From UHGV virus genome UHGV-0212259: 44,951 nt of DNA. The stretch is one strand, 5' to 3'. Each line of letters starts with the position of its first letter. Positions within the stretch are counted from its first letter, which is position 1. The notes below the pieces were generated by a model. The model was not told where the DNA came from. It did no database searches and saw only the letters and a list, made by a program, of their open reading frames with translations. This document shows positions 530-38,875 of the stretch, piece after piece. The DNA is from a virus. Both the position numbers and the translations under genes were made by a program.

Positions 530-556
530 ATGAAAAGAGGGACCGAAGTCCCTCTC
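530..556 (-). terminator. Stable hairpin plus U-run immediately after the major capsid gene (terminator/attenuator)
   Basis: AGAGGGAC-cgaa-GTCCCTCT stem-loop at 536..555 followed on the minus strand by TTTTCATTT. Confidence 0.45.
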
Positions 557-571
557 GATTATAGCTTAACC

Positions 572-1621
572 TTAAGACCCGACACCAGTTACCAGGAAGG
601 CAATCGGTACGTGCTTACGCTCAACCACACGGTTCCAGTTGGAGGCGTTCGCCAGGTCCTGCCAGGAAGCGGAGCGCGGGGTGGTCTCGGTGCCGTTACC
701 GGTGATTACTGTGCTGGTGAAGCTGTAGCCCAGTGGGTGCAGCAACCAGGTCTTACGGGTCCACAGGGTTTCTACGCCACCACCGTTACCGCGAGACGCT
801 TCGCGCTCATATTCCAGCGGGTTAGACGGATTGCCTTCGCCATAACCGATAGCGCCGTTGCCGAAGATGATGGAGATGAACTTACGGCTTGGACCAGTGC
901 CGACTACGGTCATGCTGTCGTCAACAATCACACGGTAGCCCTGGTAGGTGGCGAACAGGGTGTCGTTGTCGGCGTCTTTGATGAAGTCGATAAGCTGCTG
1001 CTTACGCGCCTGCGCATAAACGAAGCTGTGCATCGCGATAGCCCCCAGCACTTCGCCGCCGTTGCCCATCAGCGCATCGCCCATAGTCTGGGTAGCGTCG
1101 ATGAATGCGCCAGCGTCGAAGCCCAGAGAAGCAGACACGTCGATAACCATGTCATTCTGCGTATGGTATTCATCGGTAGTGGCTACGTTGTCGTTGTACA
1201 GACCGAGCGCGGTAGCAATCAGACGGCGTTGCGCCTGACGCTGCCAGAAGTTATCCAGACGGGACGCTACTGATTGCAGCGGATTCTGACTGGTCAGTTC
1301 TACAGTCAGGTCTGCCTGGCCGAAGCCTTCGTTCAGATACGCAACGCGCGCCATCATCTCGCCGGTTTGCACGTTACGCGGGGTTGCGATGTCCTGGTAT
1401 ACGTCGTTCGAGTAGTTCGGCTCGATAGAGGTATCAATCGCTTTCCAGAAAGGAATGTTGGCGACGTTGGACGGACCGCGAGCAATCTCGGCGGCGTACG
1501 GAGTCGGGGTCAGAATACCGGACTGGAAGAACGCGGTTTTTTCTACCGGGTCTTCGGTCATGTAAGACGCCAGGACCGGGATGTTGCCAGTTACGATATC
1601 GCCGATAGTGGTAATTGCCAT
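572..1621 (-). CDS. Major capsid protein (HK97-fold type inferred)
   Basis: 349 aa; immediately downstream of the scaffold gene, followed by a strong hairpin; size and position in portal-scaffold-capsid order; no motif-level proof. Confidence 0.72.
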   Translation of the reverse strand: MAITTIGDIVTGNIPVLASYMTEDPVEKTAFFQSGILTPTPYAAEIARGPSNVANIPFWKAIDTSIEPNYSNDVYQDIATPRNVQTGEMMARVAYLNEGFGQADLTVELTSQNPLQSVASRLDNFWQRQAQRRLIATALGLYNDNVATTDEYHTQNDMVIDVSASLGFDAGAFIDATQTMGDALMGNGGEVLGAIAMHSFVYAQARKQQLIDFIKDADNDTLFATYQGYRVIVDDSMTVVGTGPSRKFISIIFGNGAIGYGEGNPSNPLEYEREASRGNGGGVETLWTRKTWLLHPLGYSFTSTVITGNGTETTPRSASWQDLANASNWNRVVERKHVPIAFLVTGVGS

Positions 1622-1623
1622 TA

Positions 1624-2325
1624 TTATTTCCTCAGGGCTTTAAGTTGCCGTTCAAATTCGGCAGGGTTCGATTTATACAGAGCTAAACGCTCCGCTTCAC
1701 TCATGTCTTTAAACGCTGGTGCGGCCCCGCCGCCTTTGCCACCGGAAGCCCCGCCGCCGGAAGCTGCATTTGCTTTAATCAAATGCGAAAACGCTTTGTG
1801 TTCACGCAGGTATTTGCGGAACTGTTCCGGGTCAGTCGTGATTACGTTACCGTCTGCACCAACAAACTTAGTAACCACATCATCACCTTCGAACTCAGTC
1901 TTGACGAACGGTGCAAGGATGTCTACTGCTTCCGGGGTAATAAAGTCACCCGCGAAAGAGCCTAACACCGCTTTACGTTCGCTGCCGAGGATGCGCTCGG
2001 CCATTTTGGAGATGCGACCGTCTTTCTCGGCTAACACCGGGTCATACTGGCTACGAATCGTCTTTTCGAACTCGTCCATCTTACCTGCGGCTTTTAACGC
2101 CTCCTGGTGTGCGCGCTGCCGTTCTTCTTCGGCCTCTTTTGCTTTGCGAGCGGCTTCTTTCTTCTCCGCCAGCAACGCTTCCTGATTAGCCTTAAGCCCG
2201 GCAACCTCTTTCTCGATAAGCGCCTGAACTTCTTCAGCGGTGAACATTTTCGGCGCGTCACCGCCGCCTGTTTTATCTTCTGCCCCAGCTTCTTCCTGGA
2301 ACGGATAACGTAAAAAACGATTCAT
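1624..2325 (-). CDS. Capsid scaffolding protein
   Basis: Ala/Glu/Lys-rich coiled coil (EEVQALIEKEVAGLKANQEALLAEKKEAARKAKEAEEERQ); directly upstream of capsid gene; start placed at ATG 2325 with SD (ORF track extends to TTG 2379). Confidence 0.62.
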   Translation of the reverse strand: MNRFLRYPFQEEAGAEDKTGGGDAPKMFTAEEVQALIEKEVAGLKANQEALLAEKKEAARKAKEAEEERQRAHQEALKAAGKMDEFEKTIRSQYDPVLAEKDGRISKMAERILGSERKAVLGSFAGDFITPEAVDILAPFVKTEFEGDDVVTKFVGADGNVITTDPEQFRKYLREHKAFSHLIKANAASGGGASGGKGGGAAPAFKDMSEAERLALYKSNPAEFERQLKALRK

Positions 2326-2407
2326 AGTCAGTATGTCCCCTGGACGTTGGAACCCGGGCCACCCGGATTTACATGTCAAGAATAAATTATTCCAACATGC
2401 AAGGCAA

Positions 2408-2671
2408 CTATTCCAGAATATTCCTCACGTAATCCTGCAACATGAACACTTTCAGACGCAGTTGCCGCACGCATTCTGCGTTCTGAACGTCGATAGCTAA
2501 ATCCTCGTCCGCGTCGCTACTTGGTGGCGCCAGTTTGCACGGCGGCTGCATCATCGTCGTATCCGGGGATGGAATTGGCGTTGGCGACGGCGCGGGACTT
2601 GAGCTGCACGCGCTCAGGGTCAAAAGTGCACACGCTGCGACCAGGCGTTTTAATGTACTTAACGACTTCAC
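2408..2671 (-). CDS. o-spanin (Rz1-like outer-membrane lipoprotein)
   Basis: GTG start with GAGGTGA SD; signal peptide with lipobox LSAC; Pro-rich mature part; starts inside the i-spanin ORF in another frame and extends past its stop. Confidence 0.6.
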   Translation of the reverse strand: MKSLSTLKRLVAACALLTLSACSSSPAPSPTPIPSPDTTMMQPPCKLAPPSSDADEDLAIDVQNAECVRQLRLKVFMLQDYVRNILE

Positions 2672-2903
2672 GGGTAATCACCTCTGATTTCGTCTTGCCT
2701 TCGTTGTCAGCGGCTGCAGCCTTTGATTCGTCCTGCTGCTGCCGTTGTGTTTTCTTCGCTAACTCAGCCTGTGCCTTCTGCTGCTGCTGCGAAACGAGAT
2801 TCGCCCGGCCTTCGCTCCAGCCGCTGCGATACTGGTAGATGCCGTGTGCGTAAGCCAGGATGATGAAACATGCTCCCGCTACGACAGTTGCTTTAAGATT
2901 CAT
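2517..2903 (-). CDS. i-spanin (Rz-like inner-membrane spanin)
   Basis: N-terminal TM helix (VVAGACFIILAYAHGIY) followed by a Gln/Ala/Lys-rich coiled coil; overlaps the lipoprotein ORF in typical spanin architecture. Confidence 0.6.
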   Translation of the reverse strand: MNLKATVVAGACFIILAYAHGIYQYRSGWSEGRANLVSQQQQKAQAELAKKTQRQQQDESKAAAADNEGKTKSEVITREVVKYIKTPGRSVCTFDPERVQLKSRAVANANSIPGYDDDAAAVQTGATK

Positions 2904-3221
2904 GTTTCTCCTTTCTCGATAAGTAAAGCCCCGCCATAAAGCGGGGCGCTAGTCCTTATCATTTAAACATAGAAACGGCATAATCTCAGTAAACCAGTTA
3001 CTTTTTACACAAGCAATAGACTATGGCCCTTCCGAACGCGTCAGCGTAACTACACTCGGACTTAACGTCCGGCTCCGTTACCTGCCACGCCGCGGTCGCT
3101 TGTTCATACTTCACAAGCTCAGGTGGAGCTTAGCACATTTTTGGTGAAAAGTCAACTATTCGAATAGTTTATTCCAACATTTACAATTGAGTGGAATAAC
3201 CGGAATACATAAACAAATAGT

Positions 3222-3253
3222 TTGCGCACCCCAATATAATAGGGTACTATTCA
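3222..3253 (+). promoter_or_regulatory. Promoter with overlapping palindromic operator (type A: TTGCGC-N7-TATAAT overlapping TAATAGGGTACTATTCA)
   Basis: TATAAT at 3235..3240; 23-nt core CCAATATAATAGGGTACTATTCA identical to sites at 5375..5397 and 38826..38848; first ATG 25 nt downstream. Confidence 0.55.
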
Positions 3254-3277
3254 TTCTATCGAACCGGGGAGGCCGTC

Positions 3278-3379
3278 ATGTTAGTCGTTATTTCAGTAGT
3301 AATTGCAGTTGATGCGGTGATGTTTCTTTGGGCTTGTAGCGGTATTGGTGACATTGACACGGGTAATGGTGAACTATGA
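3278..3379 (+). CDS. Small hydrophobic peptide (33 aa), first gene of a plus-strand insert cassette
   Basis: GGGGAGG SD then ATG; MLVVISVVIAVDAVMFLWACSGIG...; stop overlaps next start (ATGA). Confidence 0.3.
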   Translation: MLVVISVVIAVDAVMFLWACSGIGDIDTGNGEL

Positions 3380-3720
3380 AATATATTAAATTAGCAGTAG
3401 CAGGTGTTGTAGCCGTTTGTTTGAGTGGTTGCGTAAGGTCGTTGCCAGACCCGGCTTTACAGGTTTATCAGGCAGGGGATACAACGGCAACATGTAATCA
3501 GTTACTATCGAGAATCGCCACGACAAAACAAGCTCAAGCCAACGCTACGCACCGTGTTAATAAGCAAATAGGTACTAACGTTGTACTCGGTGTTACAGGC
3601 GCATTCCTGATTGTTCCGCTGTTCTTTATGGACACGGGCGCCGGGCCTTCTATGGACGAGATGACAGCCGGTAATCGTCTGTCGCAGTTACAACAAACAT
3701 ACGACGAGAAATGCAAATGA
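3376..3720 (+). CDS. Lipoprotein with a C-proximal hydrophobic segment; candidate superinfection-exclusion / receptor-masking protein
   Basis: Signal peptide with lipobox LSGC (MKYIKLAVAGVVAVCLSGC); hydrophobic stretch NVVLGVTGAFLIVPLFF; opposite strand to flanking late genes; own promoter and terminator. Confidence 0.55.
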   Translation: MKYIKLAVAGVVAVCLSGCVRSLPDPALQVYQAGDTTATCNQLLSRIATTKQAQANATHRVNKQIGTNVVLGVTGAFLIVPLFFMDTGAGPSMDEMTAGNRLSQLQQTYDEKCK

Positions 3721-3785: not shown

Positions 3786-3816
3786 TAAAAATAAAGCCCC
3801 ATAGCGGGGCTTTTTA
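3786..3816. terminator. Bidirectional rho-independent terminator
   Basis: A-run, hairpin AGCCCC-atagc-GGGGCT (3795..3811), T-run; lies between convergent genes. Confidence 0.6.
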
Positions 3817-4275
3817 TCATTCCGGCTTAGTAACCTTCGCCGCTTTACTGACGGCCTCTACCCCATCGGCATCGGTGACTTTAACGAAGTATTCACCCAC
3901 CGCGTTAACCGTCAGAGACAGAGCCTCTTCCGGGGCGTTTACCACTTCCTTCCCGTCTTTGTACCAGGTCAGCGTATACGGCGCTTTACCTGCCTTAACT
4001 TCGACAGTGATAGTCGCGCTGCCGTCATCCAGTTCAGCGTCTTTCGGTTGCCCAGAGAAATACACATCGCCAGCGTCCGCCAGATACGGAATCTCGTAAA
4101 GCATGCCAGCAGCGGGTAACGCAATACCGGTTTTATCTGCAAACGGCATATCGTCCACTGGCGCACCCAGTACACTTTCGTCTTCAATAAATACCACGTT
4201 CTCGCCAGAGCCAGACACTCGGGCGTACTGGACTACACGACGTGAAGGTACATCAGTTACTTTGAAAAAGCCCAT
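3817..4275 (-). CDS. Ig-like domain protein (second), head-associated auxiliary protein
   Basis: 152 aa; Ig-like signature (APYTLTWYKDGKEV...GEYFVKVTDADG); translationally coupled 2 nt after the head morphogenesis gene stop. Confidence 0.5.
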   Translation of the reverse strand: MGFFKVTDVPSRRVVQYARVSGSGENVVFIEDESVLGAPVDDMPFADKTGIALPAAGMLYEIPYLADAGDVYFSGQPKDAELDDGSATITVEVKAGKAPYTLTWYKDGKEVVNAPEEALSLTVNAVGEYFVKVTDADGVEAVSKAAKVTKPE

Positions 4276-5365: not shown

Positions 5366-5397
5366 TTGCAGACACCAATATAATAGGGTACTATTCA
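5366..5397 (+). promoter_or_regulatory. Promoter with overlapping operator (type A), second copy
   Basis: TTGCAG-N7-TATAAT (5379..5384) overlapping TAATAGGGTACTATTCA; identical 23-nt core to 3231..3253. Confidence 0.55.
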
Positions 5398-5429
5398 TTA
5401 CATCAAAACGAGAGATAAGGAATTTAGAA

Positions 5430-5711
5430 ATGGCTAAATATTCAAACAGTAATTTACATATGACATGTGTGCATGTTGATGGTGTTCAAGTAGAGTGCGT
5501 CGCCTGTTGCAGGCCTTCATGCGAAGAAGGCATATTTAAAATAGGGCGCAAGTATTGGCTGCACCACGGGTGGTTGACGCGACCTAATGGGGATGCCGAT
5601 GTAGAACTTTGGTGGGTAGAGTATCATGGTCGCTCATATATCTGTTGGCCCGAAACGAAAAACGGCACCACCCGATACACCTCTTCCAGCAATGGATTCA
5701 TATTTGTATAA
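5430..5711 (+). CDS. Cys/Trp-rich small protein (93 aa), hypothetical; single-gene plus-strand insert
   Basis: ATG with AAGGAA SD; CVHVDGVQVECVACCRPSCEEG motif; flanked by own promoter and bidirectional terminator between head morphogenesis and portal genes. Confidence 0.45.
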   Translation: MAKYSNSNLHMTCVHVDGVQVECVACCRPSCEEGIFKIGRKYWLHHGWLTRPNGDADVELWWVEYHGRSYICWPETKNGTTRYTSSSNGFIFV

Positions 5712-5713
5712 AG

Positions 5714-5746
5714 AAAAGATAAGGCCCCTTAAGGGGCCTTTCTATT
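5714..5746. terminator. Bidirectional rho-independent terminator
   Basis: Hairpin AGGCCCC-tta-GGGGCCT at 5722..5738 with flanking A/T runs; between convergent Cys-rich gene and portal gene. Confidence 0.55.
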
Positions 5747-11167: not shown

Positions 11168-11196
11168 AATATAATAGGGTCGAAGGTAATAGTCAA
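11168..11196 (-). promoter_or_regulatory. Sigma70-like promoter (TTGACT-17-TATATT) with operator palindrome overlapping the -35
   Basis: Minus-strand TTGACT (11196..11191), 17-nt spacer, TATATT (11173..11168); operator TGAATAGTTGACTATTA spans the -35. Confidence 0.5.
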
Positions 11197-11218
11197 CTAT
11201 TCATTGCAGAAAATAGAT

Positions 11219-11250
11219 AAAAAAAAATCCCGGCTGGGTCAGGGCCGGGA
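11219..11250 (-). terminator. Rho-independent terminator after the endolysin gene
   Basis: Hairpin TCCCGGC..GCCGGGA at 11228..11250 followed on the minus strand by a 9-nt U-run. Confidence 0.65.
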
Positions 11251-11403: not shown

Positions 11404-11904
11404 TCATTTAACAGCCCTCCCGATAGCCTCAGCCTCTTGCCACGGTTTACCGTCGAACAGGGCCAGACGCCCTGCCGTACGGCGACGCAGGCCTAGTAGC
11501 GGTTTGCCGTTCTGGTTGATGAACAGCGCCAGCTTGGCACGCAGGGCCACAACATCGCCCGAGCGGAGTGCCTTACCCGTGCCGGTGGTAGCTGCAATCA
11601 CACCGGCGCCCGCGTTATACACCAGGTCGCAAACAGCGTCGAACTGCGCCTGTGTCAGTGAATGGTGCGCCACCGAATCCACCGCAGCTACGGCCTTAGC
11701 CATATCGCGATTAAGTAACAGGAGGCCTTGTCCCGGTGTGATAGTCTGCCCGGCCTTAACATGTGGGCCATAGCTTCCGTACCCAATAGTAAGGTACTTC
11801 TCATTTGGCGTAGCACGATATGCAGTTCCACGGAACCCCTCGAACGCAGCGGTAAAATGCAATCCATTATCTGAAATGTTTCGAGACACGCTTATGCCCT
11901 CCAT
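11404..11904 (-). CDS. Endolysin, lysozyme-like glycoside hydrolase (GH24-type)
   Basis: 166 aa; N-terminal FEGFRGTAY...YLTIGYGSYG motif block typical of phage lysozymes; directly downstream of two membrane-protein genes. Confidence 0.75.
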   Translation of the reverse strand: MEGISVSRNISDNGLHFTAAFEGFRGTAYRATPNEKYLTIGYGSYGPHVKAGQTITPGQGLLLLNRDMAKAVAAVDSVAHHSLTQAQFDAVCDLVYNAGAGVIAATTGTGKALRSGDVVALRAKLALFINQNGKPLLGLRRRTAGRLALFDGKPWQEAEAIGRAVK

Positions 11905-12139
11905 ACGACAGCCACGCCTGACGAATCTGGCGCAGCGCGACTAATGTGATTAATGTCTCAGGCAGCGTAGGCGACATGCTGCCCTGTAACAGGTGAATAC
12001 ATCCGGCGGCACAGACGATAGCAGTCAGGATATAGAGAACACGCCCGAACAGCCCGTCGTCCACGCGTTCATTATACACGTTGAACAGGGACGAAGCGCC
12101 CATTGCCAGCATTACGACAAACCAGAATAGCTCAGTCAT
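11867..12139 (-). CDS. Small membrane protein, second holin or antiholin
   Basis: About 90 aa from ATG 12139 (ATGA overlap with upstream holin stop); two predicted TM helices; overlaps endolysin start. Confidence 0.45.
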   Translation of the reverse strand: MTELFWFVVMLAMGASSLFNVYNERVDDGLFGRVLYILTAIVCAAGCIHLLQGSMSPTLPETLITLVALRQIRQAWLSYGGHKRVSKHFR

Positions 12140-12440
12140 GCGGTCCTCCTGGGCGGGCAATATCGCCGCCCGATACGATGCCAGAAAGGCGGGAATAGAT
12201 AGGCATCCAGAGAATGGCAATGATGAATCCGAGGCCAGCTATCTCGCGCTCCCCGGTAATGCCAAACCATTGAGCTGCAAGAGGTGCGCCAAATACGGCG
12301 CAAGTGAAGCCGGTTGCGATAAAGCAGAAGCCGTCGATAGGGCCAGAAATAACGGACTTATGTTGTCGCAGTCCGATAACCCCTCCAGCAAGAGCGGCCG
12401 CCAGAAGCCACCCCGTCACTGTTTCAGTAAATTTATCCAA
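12132..12440 (-). CDS. Holin (multi-TM small membrane protein)
   Basis: 102 aa; TTG start; three hydrophobic segments; first gene of holin / membrane protein / endolysin cassette. Confidence 0.55.
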   Translation of the reverse strand: MDKFTETVTGWLLAAALAGGVIGLRQHKSVISGPIDGFCFIATGFTCAVFGAPLAAQWFGITGEREIAGLGFIIAILWMPIYSRLSGIVSGGDIARPGGPHD

Positions 12441-12499: not shown

Positions 12500-12940
12500 T
12501 TATCCTAATAGTTGTTTGGTAATAATCTTGCCGCCGGTGTTAGTGTCGAACTTCGATGCAACGGCTACGCCGCCATGCGCCGAATATTCGCACTCCATAG
12601 CGGCTAATGCATATGGCGAGCCAGACCCCACGGCGGCGTACACATCAGCAACCGGAATAACTGAACTAAGTGCACAATCCCATGATTTATAGAACGCGAC
12701 TTTGTACACCTTTTCTGTGTCTTTCACGAACACCAGGGCTTCGAAATCGAAGTCATAATGTCTTGCCTGAAGGATATACGGACAATCGATAAGCATAGTT
12801 CCGACTCCGGCATCACCAGCTACCCCGATAACATAGACATCACTCTCATATATCTTTGTGTCTGTGTTGTAACAGTTACTTCCGCACACAACACGGGTGT
12901 CACAGGCCATTGTCTTTCCGTCAAACGCGATTGTAGTCAT
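12500..12940 (-). CDS. HslV/proteasome-beta-like N-terminal-nucleophile hydrolase (putative threonine peptidase)
   Basis: 146 aa; begins MTTIAFDG (Thr directly after Met as in HslV); VIGVAGDAG and AVGSGSPYALAA segments resemble HslV GFAGG and GSGGPYA blocks; similarity judged from memory. Confidence 0.5.
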   Translation of the reverse strand: MTTIAFDGKTMACDTRVVCGSNCYNTDTKIYESDVYVIGVAGDAGVGTMLIDCPYILQARHYDFDFEALVFVKDTEKVYKVAFYKSWDCALSSVIPVADVYAAVGSGSPYALAAMECEYSAHGGVAVASKFDTNTGGKIITKQLLG

Positions 12941-14412: not shown

Positions 14413-14440
14413 ATTCTCTCTCTCCTCTCGTTTGTGTAAA

Positions 14441-14472
14441 TGAATAGTAGTCTATTCTATCTCAGTGTGCAA
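14441..14472 (-). promoter_or_regulatory. Promoter with overlapping operator (type A, minus strand)
   Basis: Minus-strand TTGCAC-N7-TAGAAT followed by AGACTACTATTCA; palindrome TGAATAGTAGTCTATTC at 14441..14457; about 30 nt upstream of ATG 14412. Confidence 0.5.
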
Positions 14473-16005: not shown

Positions 16006-16036
16006 TGCTAAATTCCTTATGTCTCGTTTCGATAAG

Positions 16037-16068
16037 TGAATAGTAACCTATTATGTTGGGGTGTGCAA
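16037..16068 (-). promoter_or_regulatory. Promoter with overlapping operator (type A, minus strand)
   Basis: Minus-strand TTGCAC-ACCCCAA-CATAAT-AGGTTACTATTCA, near-identical to the plus-strand 23-nt core. Confidence 0.5.
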
Positions 16069-16518
16069 GAGATTCATTGAAAATGGTTACGTTGCCGTTG
16101 TGATTCTTCAGGTAGGGTTGTGCCTTTATTCTTATTACTTAGTAACTAAAGGGCAGGCCTTAAGCCTGCCCAATAATCGTTACATTTTTACGGTTGCGAA
16201 TCTACGGCACATTAAGAAAATCAGATACTTAAGAGATATGCCGCCGATGAGAATAGAGCTTGCCCAGGGTAACCGGAGATACTTAGGGAGGAAGTTACGA
16301 TAATTCTTATGTTCAGTAAACTTTCGCTTAACACTTTGCTTGCGCTGCGCGCAGCTGCGTTTTAAGCGGTTTTACAAGGTGAACAGGAATCAAAGTAACT
16401 AAGATACAGAAGCACCTTAAACGAAGATTTTCATAATGTCAATAGGTGCGATTATGTTTGATTTCCCATTATTCGCAATGTATACTTGGTTTCGTTAACT
16501 GATAATGAGGGTTTGAGA

Positions 16519-19500: not shown

Positions 19501-19515
19501 TTTTAGAAAAGCCAA

Positions 19516-19544
19516 TTGACATGTGAATAGTTCGCTATTATAGT
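19516..19544 (+). promoter_or_regulatory. Sigma70 consensus-like promoter with operator in the spacer (type B)
   Basis: TTGACA (19516..19521), 17-nt spacer containing GAATAGTTCGCTATT, TATAGT (19539..19544); about 30 nt upstream of first early plus-strand ORF. Confidence 0.6.
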
Positions 19545-19575
19545 TAGCCCATACCAAATGAGAGGAGAGAAACAA

Positions 19576-21756: not shown

Positions 21757-22004
21757 TTCGTAAAATGTTCAGAGTAATTGGCGGTTTTGTGGCGTGTATT
21801 ATTTTCTGGGTTCTTATGTCGCCGCTAATGATACCAACATTTATCATAGCGTGCCTTACGATATGCCTAATGCGAACACGCGACATCGAAGCCATCCTGA
21901 ATGACAAATCGTGGAAGACACAGGCGTTACGTTTCATAAACAACATGAAATGGCCAAACAAGTATATTGAGATAGTTGAGAAAATAACTGGCTGGAAGGG
22001 TTGA
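21753..22004 (+). CDS. Small membrane protein (2 TM)
   Basis: 83 aa from ATG 21753 (ATGA overlap with upstream stop; GAGGAGGA SD); hydrophobic segments VIGGFVACIIFWVLM and IPTFIIACLTICLM. Confidence 0.45.
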   Translation: MIRKMFRVIGGFVACIIFWVLMSPLMIPTFIIACLTICLMRTRDIEAILNDKSWKTQALRFINNMKWPNKYIEIVEKITGWKG

Positions 22005-22029
22005 CACCTGAATAGTTAGCTATTATATT
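22001..22029 (+). promoter_or_regulatory. Sigma70-like promoter with operator in spacer (type B) upstream of SSB-like gene
   Basis: TTGACA (22001..22006), 17-nt spacer containing TGAATAGTTAGCTAT, TATATT (22024..22029). Confidence 0.55.
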
Positions 22030-22087
22030 TCTAATCACTGGCCGGGCAGCTCCCGGAGTAAACGAAACTGAAAAGCGAGAAATTAAG

Positions 22088-38709: not shown

Positions 38710-38816
38710 TCTTTAATCCTTTGGTTAAGAGGTTACTGGTTAAGGTGAATGCGCCAGGCGGGAACCACCCGCTTTTCGTGTGCGACACTAGGCGCAAACT
38801 TATTCTAGCACACTAC

Positions 38817-38848
38817 TTGCAGGCCCCAATATAATAGGGTACTATTCA
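38817..38848 (+). promoter_or_regulatory. Promoter with overlapping operator (type A), third identical copy
   Basis: TTGCAG-GCCCCAA-TATAAT (38830..38835) overlapping TAATAGGGTACTATTCA. Confidence 0.55.
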
Positions 38849-38875
38849 CTTACACCAACAACGAAGGGGTTTAAA

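Follow-up and report, generated by a model that had tools for sequence, protein, structure and literature searches.

In phage lambda, the holin sets the time of lysis, and the spanins build up in inactive form and act once the cell wall has been degraded. In the lambda PR'-6S RNA-tR' region and in HK022 put, a promoter, a structured transcript of ~200 nt and a terminator-like hairpin precede the lysis and head genes. Overlapped two-component spanins include the "Jersey" family defined by Kongari et al. (2018; PMC6139136), which includes the proteins of Jersey, SETP3, K1G, K1H, K1ind1-3, the HK578 group and JL1. The two genes of phage Jersey overlap by 155 bp, the o-spanins of this family share constant cysteines at positions 45 and 67, and in the periplasmic part of the i-spanins two helices are connected by a linker for which two beta strands are predicted (PMC6139136). 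For phages fBC-Eco01 (PMC9825357) and SeF1 (PMC9409062), the published descriptions place the spanins toward the beginning of the genome and the holins and endolysin toward the opposite end.

We analyzed the virus genome UHGV-0212259, a stretch of 44,951 nucleotides that is referred to as the window in the following. Its first 16 kb match ~490 phage records. The best matches are the E. coli siphophages EC3-1, GZMU_E2010 and BUCT825, with ~91% identity over 70-78% of the query, and hundreds of Salmonella phages rank below them. Since the matching records with taxonomy belong to the Guernseyvirinae, genera Kagunavirus and Jerseyvirus, we regard UHGV-0212259 as a Kagunavirus-like phage of this subfamily, as judged from these matches. 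An Rfam scan of the whole window at gathering thresholds returned int-alpA at 38734..38798 alone.

The initial annotation of this genome had proposed an overlapped spanin pair at 2408..2903. Both genes are present in the list of open reading frames and are located on the minus strand. The i-spanin gene (2517..2903) starts with ATG, preceded by the Shine-Dalgarno (SD) sequence AAGGAG, and encodes 128 amino acids. The o-spanin gene (2408..2671) starts with GTG, 5 nt downstream of the SD sequence GAGGTGAT, and encodes 87 amino acids. It begins inside the i-spanin gene in another reading frame and extends 109 nt past its end, and the resulting overlap of 155 nt places the pair in the overlapped architecture class. 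The i-spanin matches phrog_2536 (E=9e-57) and the o-spanin phrog_5672 (E=5e-30) and phrog_1267 (E=9e-21), all PHROG profiles annotated as "Rz-like spanin".

The domain architecture of both proteins is that of a two-component spanin. A single N-terminal transmembrane segment is found in the i-spanin at about residues 5-23 (ATVVAGACFIILAYAHGIY), with K4 and R26 on either side; the remainder is polar and charged, with one periplasmic cysteine at position 92, and the pattern is identical in all relatives compared. The o-spanin begins with a basic start and a hydrophobic core, followed by the lipobox LSAC with Cys22 (MKSLSTLKRLVAACALLTLSA-C22-SSS). Its residue at position +2 is a serine and not an aspartate, as expected for sorting to the outer membrane, and the mature part is proline-rich and contains Cys45 and Cys67. 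Relatives retain the pair together with lipobox (LSAC, LASC, LSGC or ITGC) and cysteines, so that i-spanin Cys92 and o-spanin Cys45/Cys67 are conserved and available for intermolecular disulfides. The DNA of the spanin genes matches 487 phage records and the i-spanin protein 665, with 93.8% identity to the K1G i-spanin over 128 amino acids. Because of the PHROG matches and the conservation of the pair in relatives, the two reading frames are not chance occurrences, and the proposed pair is borne out by reading frames, profile matches, lipobox, transmembrane segment and conservation alike. Judging by these features, it is very probably a canonical two-component member of the published Jersey overlapped family. 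Many GenBank records carry a truncated o-spanin of 41-48 amino acids that lacks the lipoprotein signal; the right start of the o-spanin gene in UHGV-0212259 is the GTG at 2671.

By analogy to lambda Rz/Rz1, the N-terminal helix would anchor the i-spanin to the inner membrane, and the o-spanin would be an outer-membrane lipoprotein. The two proteins would meet across the periplasm, held by disulfide-linked dimers. They would destroy the outer membrane as the last step, once holin triggering and cell wall degradation by the endolysin are complete.

Holin, second membrane protein and endolysin had been placed at 11404..12440, about 9 kb away from the spanins, and both the assignments and the distance are confirmed. 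The holin gene (12132..12440, minus strand) encodes 102 amino acids with three hydrophobic segments (phrog_2359, E=5e-31). The second holin-like membrane protein (11867..12142, alternative end 12220, minus strand) comprises 91 amino acids from its ATG (phrog_2508, E=2e-34), and relatives annotate a 90-amino-acid holin matching this slot. The endolysin (11404..11904, minus strand) is a soluble GH24 lysozyme (PF00959, E=2e-25, and PHROG endolysin families) without an N-terminal hydrophobic segment or signal-anchor. With 8.5-9.5 kb between the two loci, UHGV-0212259 does not contain a clustered holin-endolysin-spanin cassette. A scan for lipobox-containing reading frames, whose first-match rule missed the o-spanin itself, flagged two candidates, 3376..3720 and 21765..22004 on the plus strand, neither of which is near the endolysin.

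The spanin genes are surrounded by head genes of the same strand. Downstream of them lie the head scaffolding gene (1624..2316, phrog_206, E=5e-56), which is annotated thus in relatives, and the gene for an SPP1 gp13-like major capsid protein (572..1621), which is followed by a terminator-like hairpin (556..535, minus strand). Upstream, a gene for a Hoc-like Ig-domain head decoration protein (3817..4275, phrog_3945, E=1e-85, with a weak Ig_3 match) is followed by a hairpin with A/T-rich flanks on both sides (3793..3813), as expected for a bidirectional element; another hairpin of this type is found after the portal gene (5721..5740). Each of these two hairpins adjoins a reading frame on the opposite strand, and the one after the Hoc-like gene is retained in ST20, a phage without an insert at this position. 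The location between an Ig-like head gene and the scaffold gene had thus been described correctly, with the omission of the plus-strand reading frame 3376..3720 and of ~470 nt of regulatory DNA that separate the Hoc-like gene from the spanins.

The product of this plus-strand gene is an accessory lipoprotein of 114 amino acids with the lipobox LSGC and an internal hydrophobic segment. It occupies a variable slot, which holds different cargo or nothing in relatives, and was found in only 11 phage records. We considered and rejected it as a unimolecular spanin: the hydrophobic segment (residues ~66-84 of 114) is followed by 30 further residues and hence is not C-terminal, only ~46 residues separate it from the lipobox cysteine, and the gene lies on the opposite strand, in the variable slot of few phages and without lysis context. 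It is no part of the spanin system.

We next compared the position of the spanins with that in individual relatives from Kagunavirus, Jerseyvirus and the SE1-type phages. The order head-morphogenesis gene, Hoc-like gene, variable slot, spanins, scaffold and capsid gene is present in EC3-1, Bas71, ST20, RP180, S100, SP8 and KE17, and SE1 and NFG5577 show it with small variations. Among Guernseyvirinae, about 490 records show the split arrangement, and Dhillonvirus shares it. In the Dhillonvirus Teewinot, the homologous i-spanin gene has an 8-nt overlap with the 3′ end of the head-morphogenesis gene, and the scaffold gene is next. Serratia phage ZDD2 is a more distant relative (43% similarity of the capsid protein). 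Here, an overlapped spanin pair directly follows the lysozyme gene and the junction between head-morphogenesis and scaffold gene is empty; a search for homology between these spanins and those of UHGV-0212259 gave no match. From these comparisons, the spanin site in the head module appears to be an old, fixed feature common to Guernseyvirinae and Dhillonvirus, and not a peculiarity of this genome. With ZDD2 as the one outgroup, we hypothesize that the spanin family belongs to the head module and may have replaced a cassette-linked pair in the ancestor of these phages. One spanin family would then have travelled with the head module across two phage groups, a distant relative keeping an unrelated, lysozyme-adjacent pair.

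The split arrangement had been called unusual in the initial annotation. This view is not supported, because family and location have already been published (for the Jersey family, fBC-Eco01 and SeF1), because the layout is invariant in Guernseyvirinae and recurs in Dhillonvirus, and because the spanins of T4 are unlinked as well.

Two units are predicted around the holin/endolysin cassette. The endolysin gene is followed by an intrinsic terminator (11249..11219, minus strand, CCCGGC-N9-GCCGGG-A-T9), which was read from the sequence and had escaped our hairpin scan due to its loop of 9 nt. Behind it lies a predicted promoter (GAATAG-TTGACT-17-TATATT, 11202..11168, hexamers 11196..11168, minus strand) directed toward the small genes, terminase and portal. 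Because of this succession of terminator and promoter, holin and endolysin are plausibly the last genes of a leftward unit, with a new unit continuing into the small genes, terminase and portal. The cassette had been described as lying in an early block behind its own terminator: the terminator is strong and real, but it follows the cassette and does not precede it, and "early" is an assumption. Assigning the spanins to "the late operon" is too simple. Terminator-like hairpins, predicted promoters and opposite-strand reading frames would divide the head region into several units. The 12-mer GAATAGTTGMCT is present in three copies (chance expectation 0.32), all on the minus strand and all at predicted promoters: 11202..11191 behind the endolysin terminator, 3161..3150 upstream of the spanins and 2413..2402 upstream of the scaffold gene.

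The spanins are preceded by a predicted σ70 promoter (3127..3155, minus strand) with the –35 hexamer TTGACT (3155..3150) and the –10 hexamer TAAGCT (3132..3127), separated by a 17-nt spacer with a TGc-type extended –10 element; transcription is predicted to start at ~3120. The –10 hexamer fits the consensus at only three of six bases. We aligned ~320 nt upstream of the i-spanin gene from ten phages and found the hexamers and the TG conserved and the spacer variable, with TTGACT-17-TGc-TAAGCT in Kagunavirus and TAGACT-17-TGt-TACGCT in Jerseyvirus; the pattern held in 48 more loci from IMG/VR. Behind the promoter, the alignment shows a conserved stretch of non-coding appearance that extends to the i-spanin start codon. 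Further upstream is a second promoter-like site (3233..3262, minus strand) of a type occurring genome-wide (TCGATA-18-TATATT with GAATAGTACCCTATTATATT).

Another predicted promoter is located in the spacer between o-spanin and scaffold gene (2379..2407, minus strand): TTGCCT (2407..2402) and TATTCT (2384..2379), 17 nt apart and with GAATAG ahead. The spacer itself (2407..2317) is near-invariant, with 89-100% identity in lineages whose flanking genes show 75-84%. Spacer and leader promoter have in common the 12-mer ATGTTGGAATAA, which includes the palindrome GAATA-N3-TATTC; exact copies at 3162..3174 and 2380..2392 are the only ones in the window. We also considered whether the flanks of this 12-mer are part of a longer duplication, which was dismissed as the similarity is not significant beyond ~25 nt (score 33 versus 24.6 ± 4.4 expected).

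The proposal that spanins and holin-endolysin are transcribed separately is supported as a sequence prediction by the terminator and new promoter behind the cassette and by the spanins' own promoter and leader, which makes a transcriptional separation of the two loci plausible. That it bears on lysis timing is unlikely. In lambda the holin is the clock and spanins need only be present beforehand, so we expect the separation to have little effect on the time of lysis. The only RNA-seq study found for a Kagunavirus, K1B4, places lysozyme, head-morphogenesis and capsid genes all in one broad "middle" class and does not mention the spanins (PMC12645636). It gives no per-gene time data for the spanins and offers no support for different timing of the two lysis loci.

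Between the predicted start at ~3120 and the i-spanin start codon, the transcript would carry a leader of ~215 nt with two structured domains. The 5′ domain (3019..3120, minus strand) consists of a 5′-terminal hairpin P1 and a long stem P2, which has internal loops as well as a GUAA/GUUAA loop; the invariant sequence TTCGGAAGGGCC comes next. The 3′ domain (2904..2976, minus strand) is an irregular stem-loop of 27 bp, identified by minimum free energy folding and covariance model R2. The initial annotation had noted a hairpin at 2927..2947 upstream of the i-spanin SD sequence. This hairpin is real (2947..2928, minus strand; GCCCCGCT-TTAT-GGCGGGGC, then TTTACTTAT; 8 bp with seven G-C pairs) and is retained in relatives by compensatory changes. 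It is not a mere hairpin, however, but the apex of the larger conserved 3′ stem-loop, which extends to the i-spanin start codon. In the basal helix GUUUCU pairs with AGAAAC at positions –6 to –1 relative to the i-spanin AUG, and in the second helix UUU pairs with GAA of the SD region.

Both domains show strong covariation. In covariance model R2, 97.1% of the cells of the 3′ domain are paired, eight pairs show double changes, and none of 500 shuffles reaches the covariation score. Model R1 of the 5′ domain was built from Kagunavirus sequences and detects a single copy in each of 54 loci, Jerseyvirus included. Here, 96.4% of the cells are paired (28-37% in slid controls), 14 of the 28 pairs show double changes, and the score is attained by no shuffle. 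Agreement is inflated in these counts because the underlying alignments had been fitted to the models; in an unfitted MAFFT alignment of the leader, double changes are found in seven of 22 pairs and compensations are visible by eye. Together, the two domains contain ~55 base pairs kept through compensatory changes, and owing to conserved G-U pairs the fold can form only on the spanin-sense strand. At the level of primary sequence, identity of the leader reaches 95-97% in lineages with 75-87% identity of the spanin genes and 82-84% of the scaffold genes, and the leader is present at ≥90% identity in 180 records. The SE1-type phages carry another leader sequence of similar plan.

We then searched for the leader elsewhere. 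With a permissive E-value, the leader (3120..2904) gave best Rfam hits of 13-18 bits (E ≥ 0.98), compared to thresholds of 35-100, and thus matches no Rfam family. Since a search of 5,426 E. coli genomes returned no match, the leader does not derive from a small RNA of the host or from a common prophage. A scan of IMG/VR for an invariant 15-mer, followed by model R1 on 33 new loci, identified two more phages of the Guernseyvirinae group and no leader outside it; a third R1 match lies antisense inside a coding gene and was taken as chance. Models R1 and R2 detected no second copy of either domain in the window, and a weak R2 match at 16124..16205 corresponds to a different terminator hairpin. 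Resemblances to RfaH ops and to the rrn and lambda boxA, noted by eye, are partial and not common to both clades and were dropped. The homologous spanins of Dhillonvirus are preceded by neither promoter nor leader, and the leader is therefore dispensable for spanin function as such and would serve regulation.

Based on these observations, we propose that the spanins of Guernseyvirinae head their own predicted transcription unit, in which the σ70 promoter would produce a structured leader whose last stem-loop, with the hairpin at its tip, would partly occlude the i-spanin ribosome-binding region. After the spanins, the second predicted promoter would serve the scaffold and capsid genes. Most likely, the leader would keep spanin output low and stable beside the highly expressed capsid genes, by partial termination, restricted translation initiation or both. 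Alternative roles are those of an attenuator or antiterminator, of a small RNA released by termination, or of an RNase III processing site. A more far-reaching interpretation, which we consider less likely than not, is that promoter and leader together represent an undescribed class of cis-regulatory RNA confined to Guernseyvirinae that would gate the spanins, and possibly scaffold and capsid, by attenuation/antitermination or by opening and closing of the ribosome-binding site. It might respond to a phage or host factor, and the GAATA palindromes at the leader and scaffold promoters would in that case contribute to a switch of late genes.

The conservation of the leader also bears on a simpler possibility, namely that the spanins are under no dedicated control. 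They would ride on long late transcripts from far upstream, for example from the promoter at 11196..11168, by read-through of weak hairpins, and the upstream DNA would provide a restart promoter and a stabilizing 5′ untranslated region needed by the terminator-flanked insert slot. We consider this doubtful. It would agree with the fusion of the homologous Dhillonvirus spanins into a head operon by the 8-nt overlap, without any leader, and with the common class of lysozyme and capsid genes in the K1B4 RNA-seq data (PMC12645636). Terminator-like sites as a class are likewise not enriched in the region (23 found versus 17.2 ± 4.2 in shuffles). However, a plain restart promoter does not need ~55 compensated pairs or a leader conserved above the surrounding genes, and the bidirectional hairpin behind the Hoc-like gene persists where no insert is present.

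The hairpin at the tip of the 3′ domain raises the question of termination. Its GC-rich stem is directly followed by TTTACTTATC, and a rough terminator score of +17 is as high as any in the genome, although the formula of this score is an old one applied to modern energies; the score rates the obvious T9 terminator too low and was used for ranking only. As the hairpin is a plausible terminator here, much of the transcript may stop before the spanins. The leader could be a separate small RNA, an attenuator or an antiterminator: the majority of transcripts initiated at the promoter 3155..3127 would stop at the hairpin as a ~200-nt RNA, and the spanins would be expressed only by read-through. This read-through could be promoted by a phage factor (lambda PR'-tR'-like) or by an effect of the 5′ domain on RNA polymerase (HK022 put-like); the RNA might also act in trans. 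The succession of promoter, ~200-nt structured RNA, GC-rich hairpin with U-rich tail and lysis/head genes is that of lambda PR'/6S RNA/tR', and the strong conservation and structure of the 5′ domain fit such a role. Nevertheless, we judge it to be unlikely. The tail reads UUUACUUAU here versus UUAGCGUAU in the Jerseyvirus homologues, where the score drops to between –3 and –10 while the structure is kept, and even the U-rich tail is itself paired with the upstream A-rich strand in the conserved lower helices. Because the Jerseyvirus tail is not U-rich, the conserved property of the hairpin is the extended structure and not termination. Moreover, the element is present only once in the genome, and the window contains no excess of matches complementary to the invariant 12-mer TTCGGAAGGGCC that would point to a target in trans.

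A protein of 36-39 amino acids encoded by the conserved upstream region in place of an RNA element is highly improbable and was rejected for frame inconsistency: a short hypothetical coding sequence is annotated there in Bas71, KE17 and RP180 and the peptide core AFGRA(I/E)LYC recurs, but start codon, N-terminal half and C-terminus vary by lineage, the reading frame is interrupted in L025 and L036, the first half lies in a different frame here than in Bas71, indels are not multiples of three, and substitutions are paired across helices.

The leader RNA, if functional, would open a new way to address the control of late genes in these phages, whose transcription program is essentially unstudied. 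Kagunavirus and Jerseyvirus phages have been widely proposed for therapy and food safety, and deleting or swapping "the lysis cassette" in these phages leaves the spanins untouched.

In comparison to known systems, the leader resembles lambda PR'-6S RNA-tR' and HK022 put in layout only. It has no Rfam match, the tail of its hairpin is not U-rich in Jerseyvirus, and its structure extends into the ribosome-binding region, whereas theirs does not. With lambda Rz/Rz1, the spanins share the proposed mechanism and the topology, an inner-membrane subunit and an outer-membrane lipoprotein that act last in lysis; a sequence relationship was not detected here. Rz1 is wholly embedded in Rz within the S-R-Rz/Rz1 cassette, whereas the pair described here is overlapped and lies 8.5-9.5 kb away from the other lysis genes. 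The spanins pseT.3/pseT.2 of T4 are likewise unlinked from holin (t) and endolysin (e) (PMC6139136), but have a separated architecture, belong to another family and are located outside the head module. Dhillonvirus (HK578/Teewinot) carries homologous i- and o-spanins between head-morphogenesis and scaffold genes, but lacks the Hoc-like gene, insert slot, promoter and leader, and its i-spanin gene overlaps the preceding head gene. From the Jersey family there is no substantive difference: identity to K1G, the 155-nt overlap, Cys45/Cys67 of the o-spanin, the single periplasmic cysteine of the i-spanin and the PHROG families all agree, and the published description covers proteins and gene architecture but not the upstream leader (PMC6139136). 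Taken together, the observation of the spanin pair is correct but ordinary and already documented, and the structured leader, possibly the only new element of an otherwise known locus, is the one item worth following up.

Near-identical promoter-like units of the form [-35]-N3-GAATAGTnnnCTATTATATT recur as a family in the window. They lie on the minus strand at 3262..3233, 5406..5377 and about 38860..38828, on the plus strand at about 16025..16055, 19515..19545 and 22000..22030, and at 14430..14460. In four or five of them, the sequence GGnGTGYGCAAG follows next after the unit. The spacer of these units holds a palindrome, GAATAG-N4-CTATT, in an operator-like placement, and a half-site of it adjoins or overlaps the –35 region both at the predicted post-endolysin promoter (11202) and at the predicted promoter of the structured leader RNA preceding the i-spanin gene (3161). 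Because the palindrome or its half-site is shared by the promoter-like units and these two promoters, the sequence suggests that most promoters of the window are under the control of a single phage regulator. Directly downstream of one unit of this type lies a match to int-alpA RNA (38734..38798, minus strand; 36.4 bits versus a gathering score of 35.8), the sole Rfam match at gathering score in the window.

Another layout of promoter, short transcript and terminator is found inside the divergent control region (about 16441..16145, minus strand). Here, a promoter-like site (TTGACA-17-TAAGGT, about 16441..16413) is followed after ∼250 nt by a hairpin terminator (16171..16151), among the strongest in the region, and the unit overlaps a plus-strand ORF (16061..16303). 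Directly upstream of the holin gene, and in one predicted unit with it, is a gene for an HslV/proteasome-like peptidase (12500..12940, minus strand), which matches phrog_1040 and, weakly, the Pfam Proteasome family.

Phages ST20 (2280..2251) and SP8 (2297..2268) share a conserved site that resembles a promoter (TTTACA-18-AATAAT, including a TG); the equivalent position in the window is about 3190..3220 on the plus strand. Since this site faces the variable slot next to the Hoc-like gene and away from the spanin leader, we regard the DNA that separates this gene from the spanins as a predicted divergent promoter region, also in phages with an empty slot. In the window, the slot between Hoc-like gene and leader is occupied by a plus-strand ORF (3376..3720; phrog_13472) encoding a 114-aa lipoprotein with a lipobox (LSGC) and an internal hydrophobic segment, which could be an accessory gene of the superinfection-exclusion type. 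Copies of at least 99% identity occur in only 11 Kagunavirus records; in relatives, the slot is either empty or filled by a methyltransferase gene, a RusA-like gene or other small ORFs. A second opposite-strand ORF (5430..5711, plus strand; 93 aa, rich in Cys, His and Trp), for which no Pfam match was found, separates the portal gene from the head-morphogenesis gene and adjoins a bidirectional hairpin (5721..5740).

The o-spanin is unannotated in the RP180 record. In the GenBank entries of EC3-1, Bas71, ST20, S100 and SP8 it appears as an ORF of 41–48 aa, lacking signal peptide and lipobox because the start was placed at an internal ATG. Comparison with four related loci (L007, from S100, L042, L043 and L045) points to mosaicism: their Kagunavirus-type leader is 95–97% identical to that of the window, their spanin and scaffold genes only 75–87%. 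In L045, this leader is joined to a spanin pair of the “separated” class, whose genes overlap by 14 nt.
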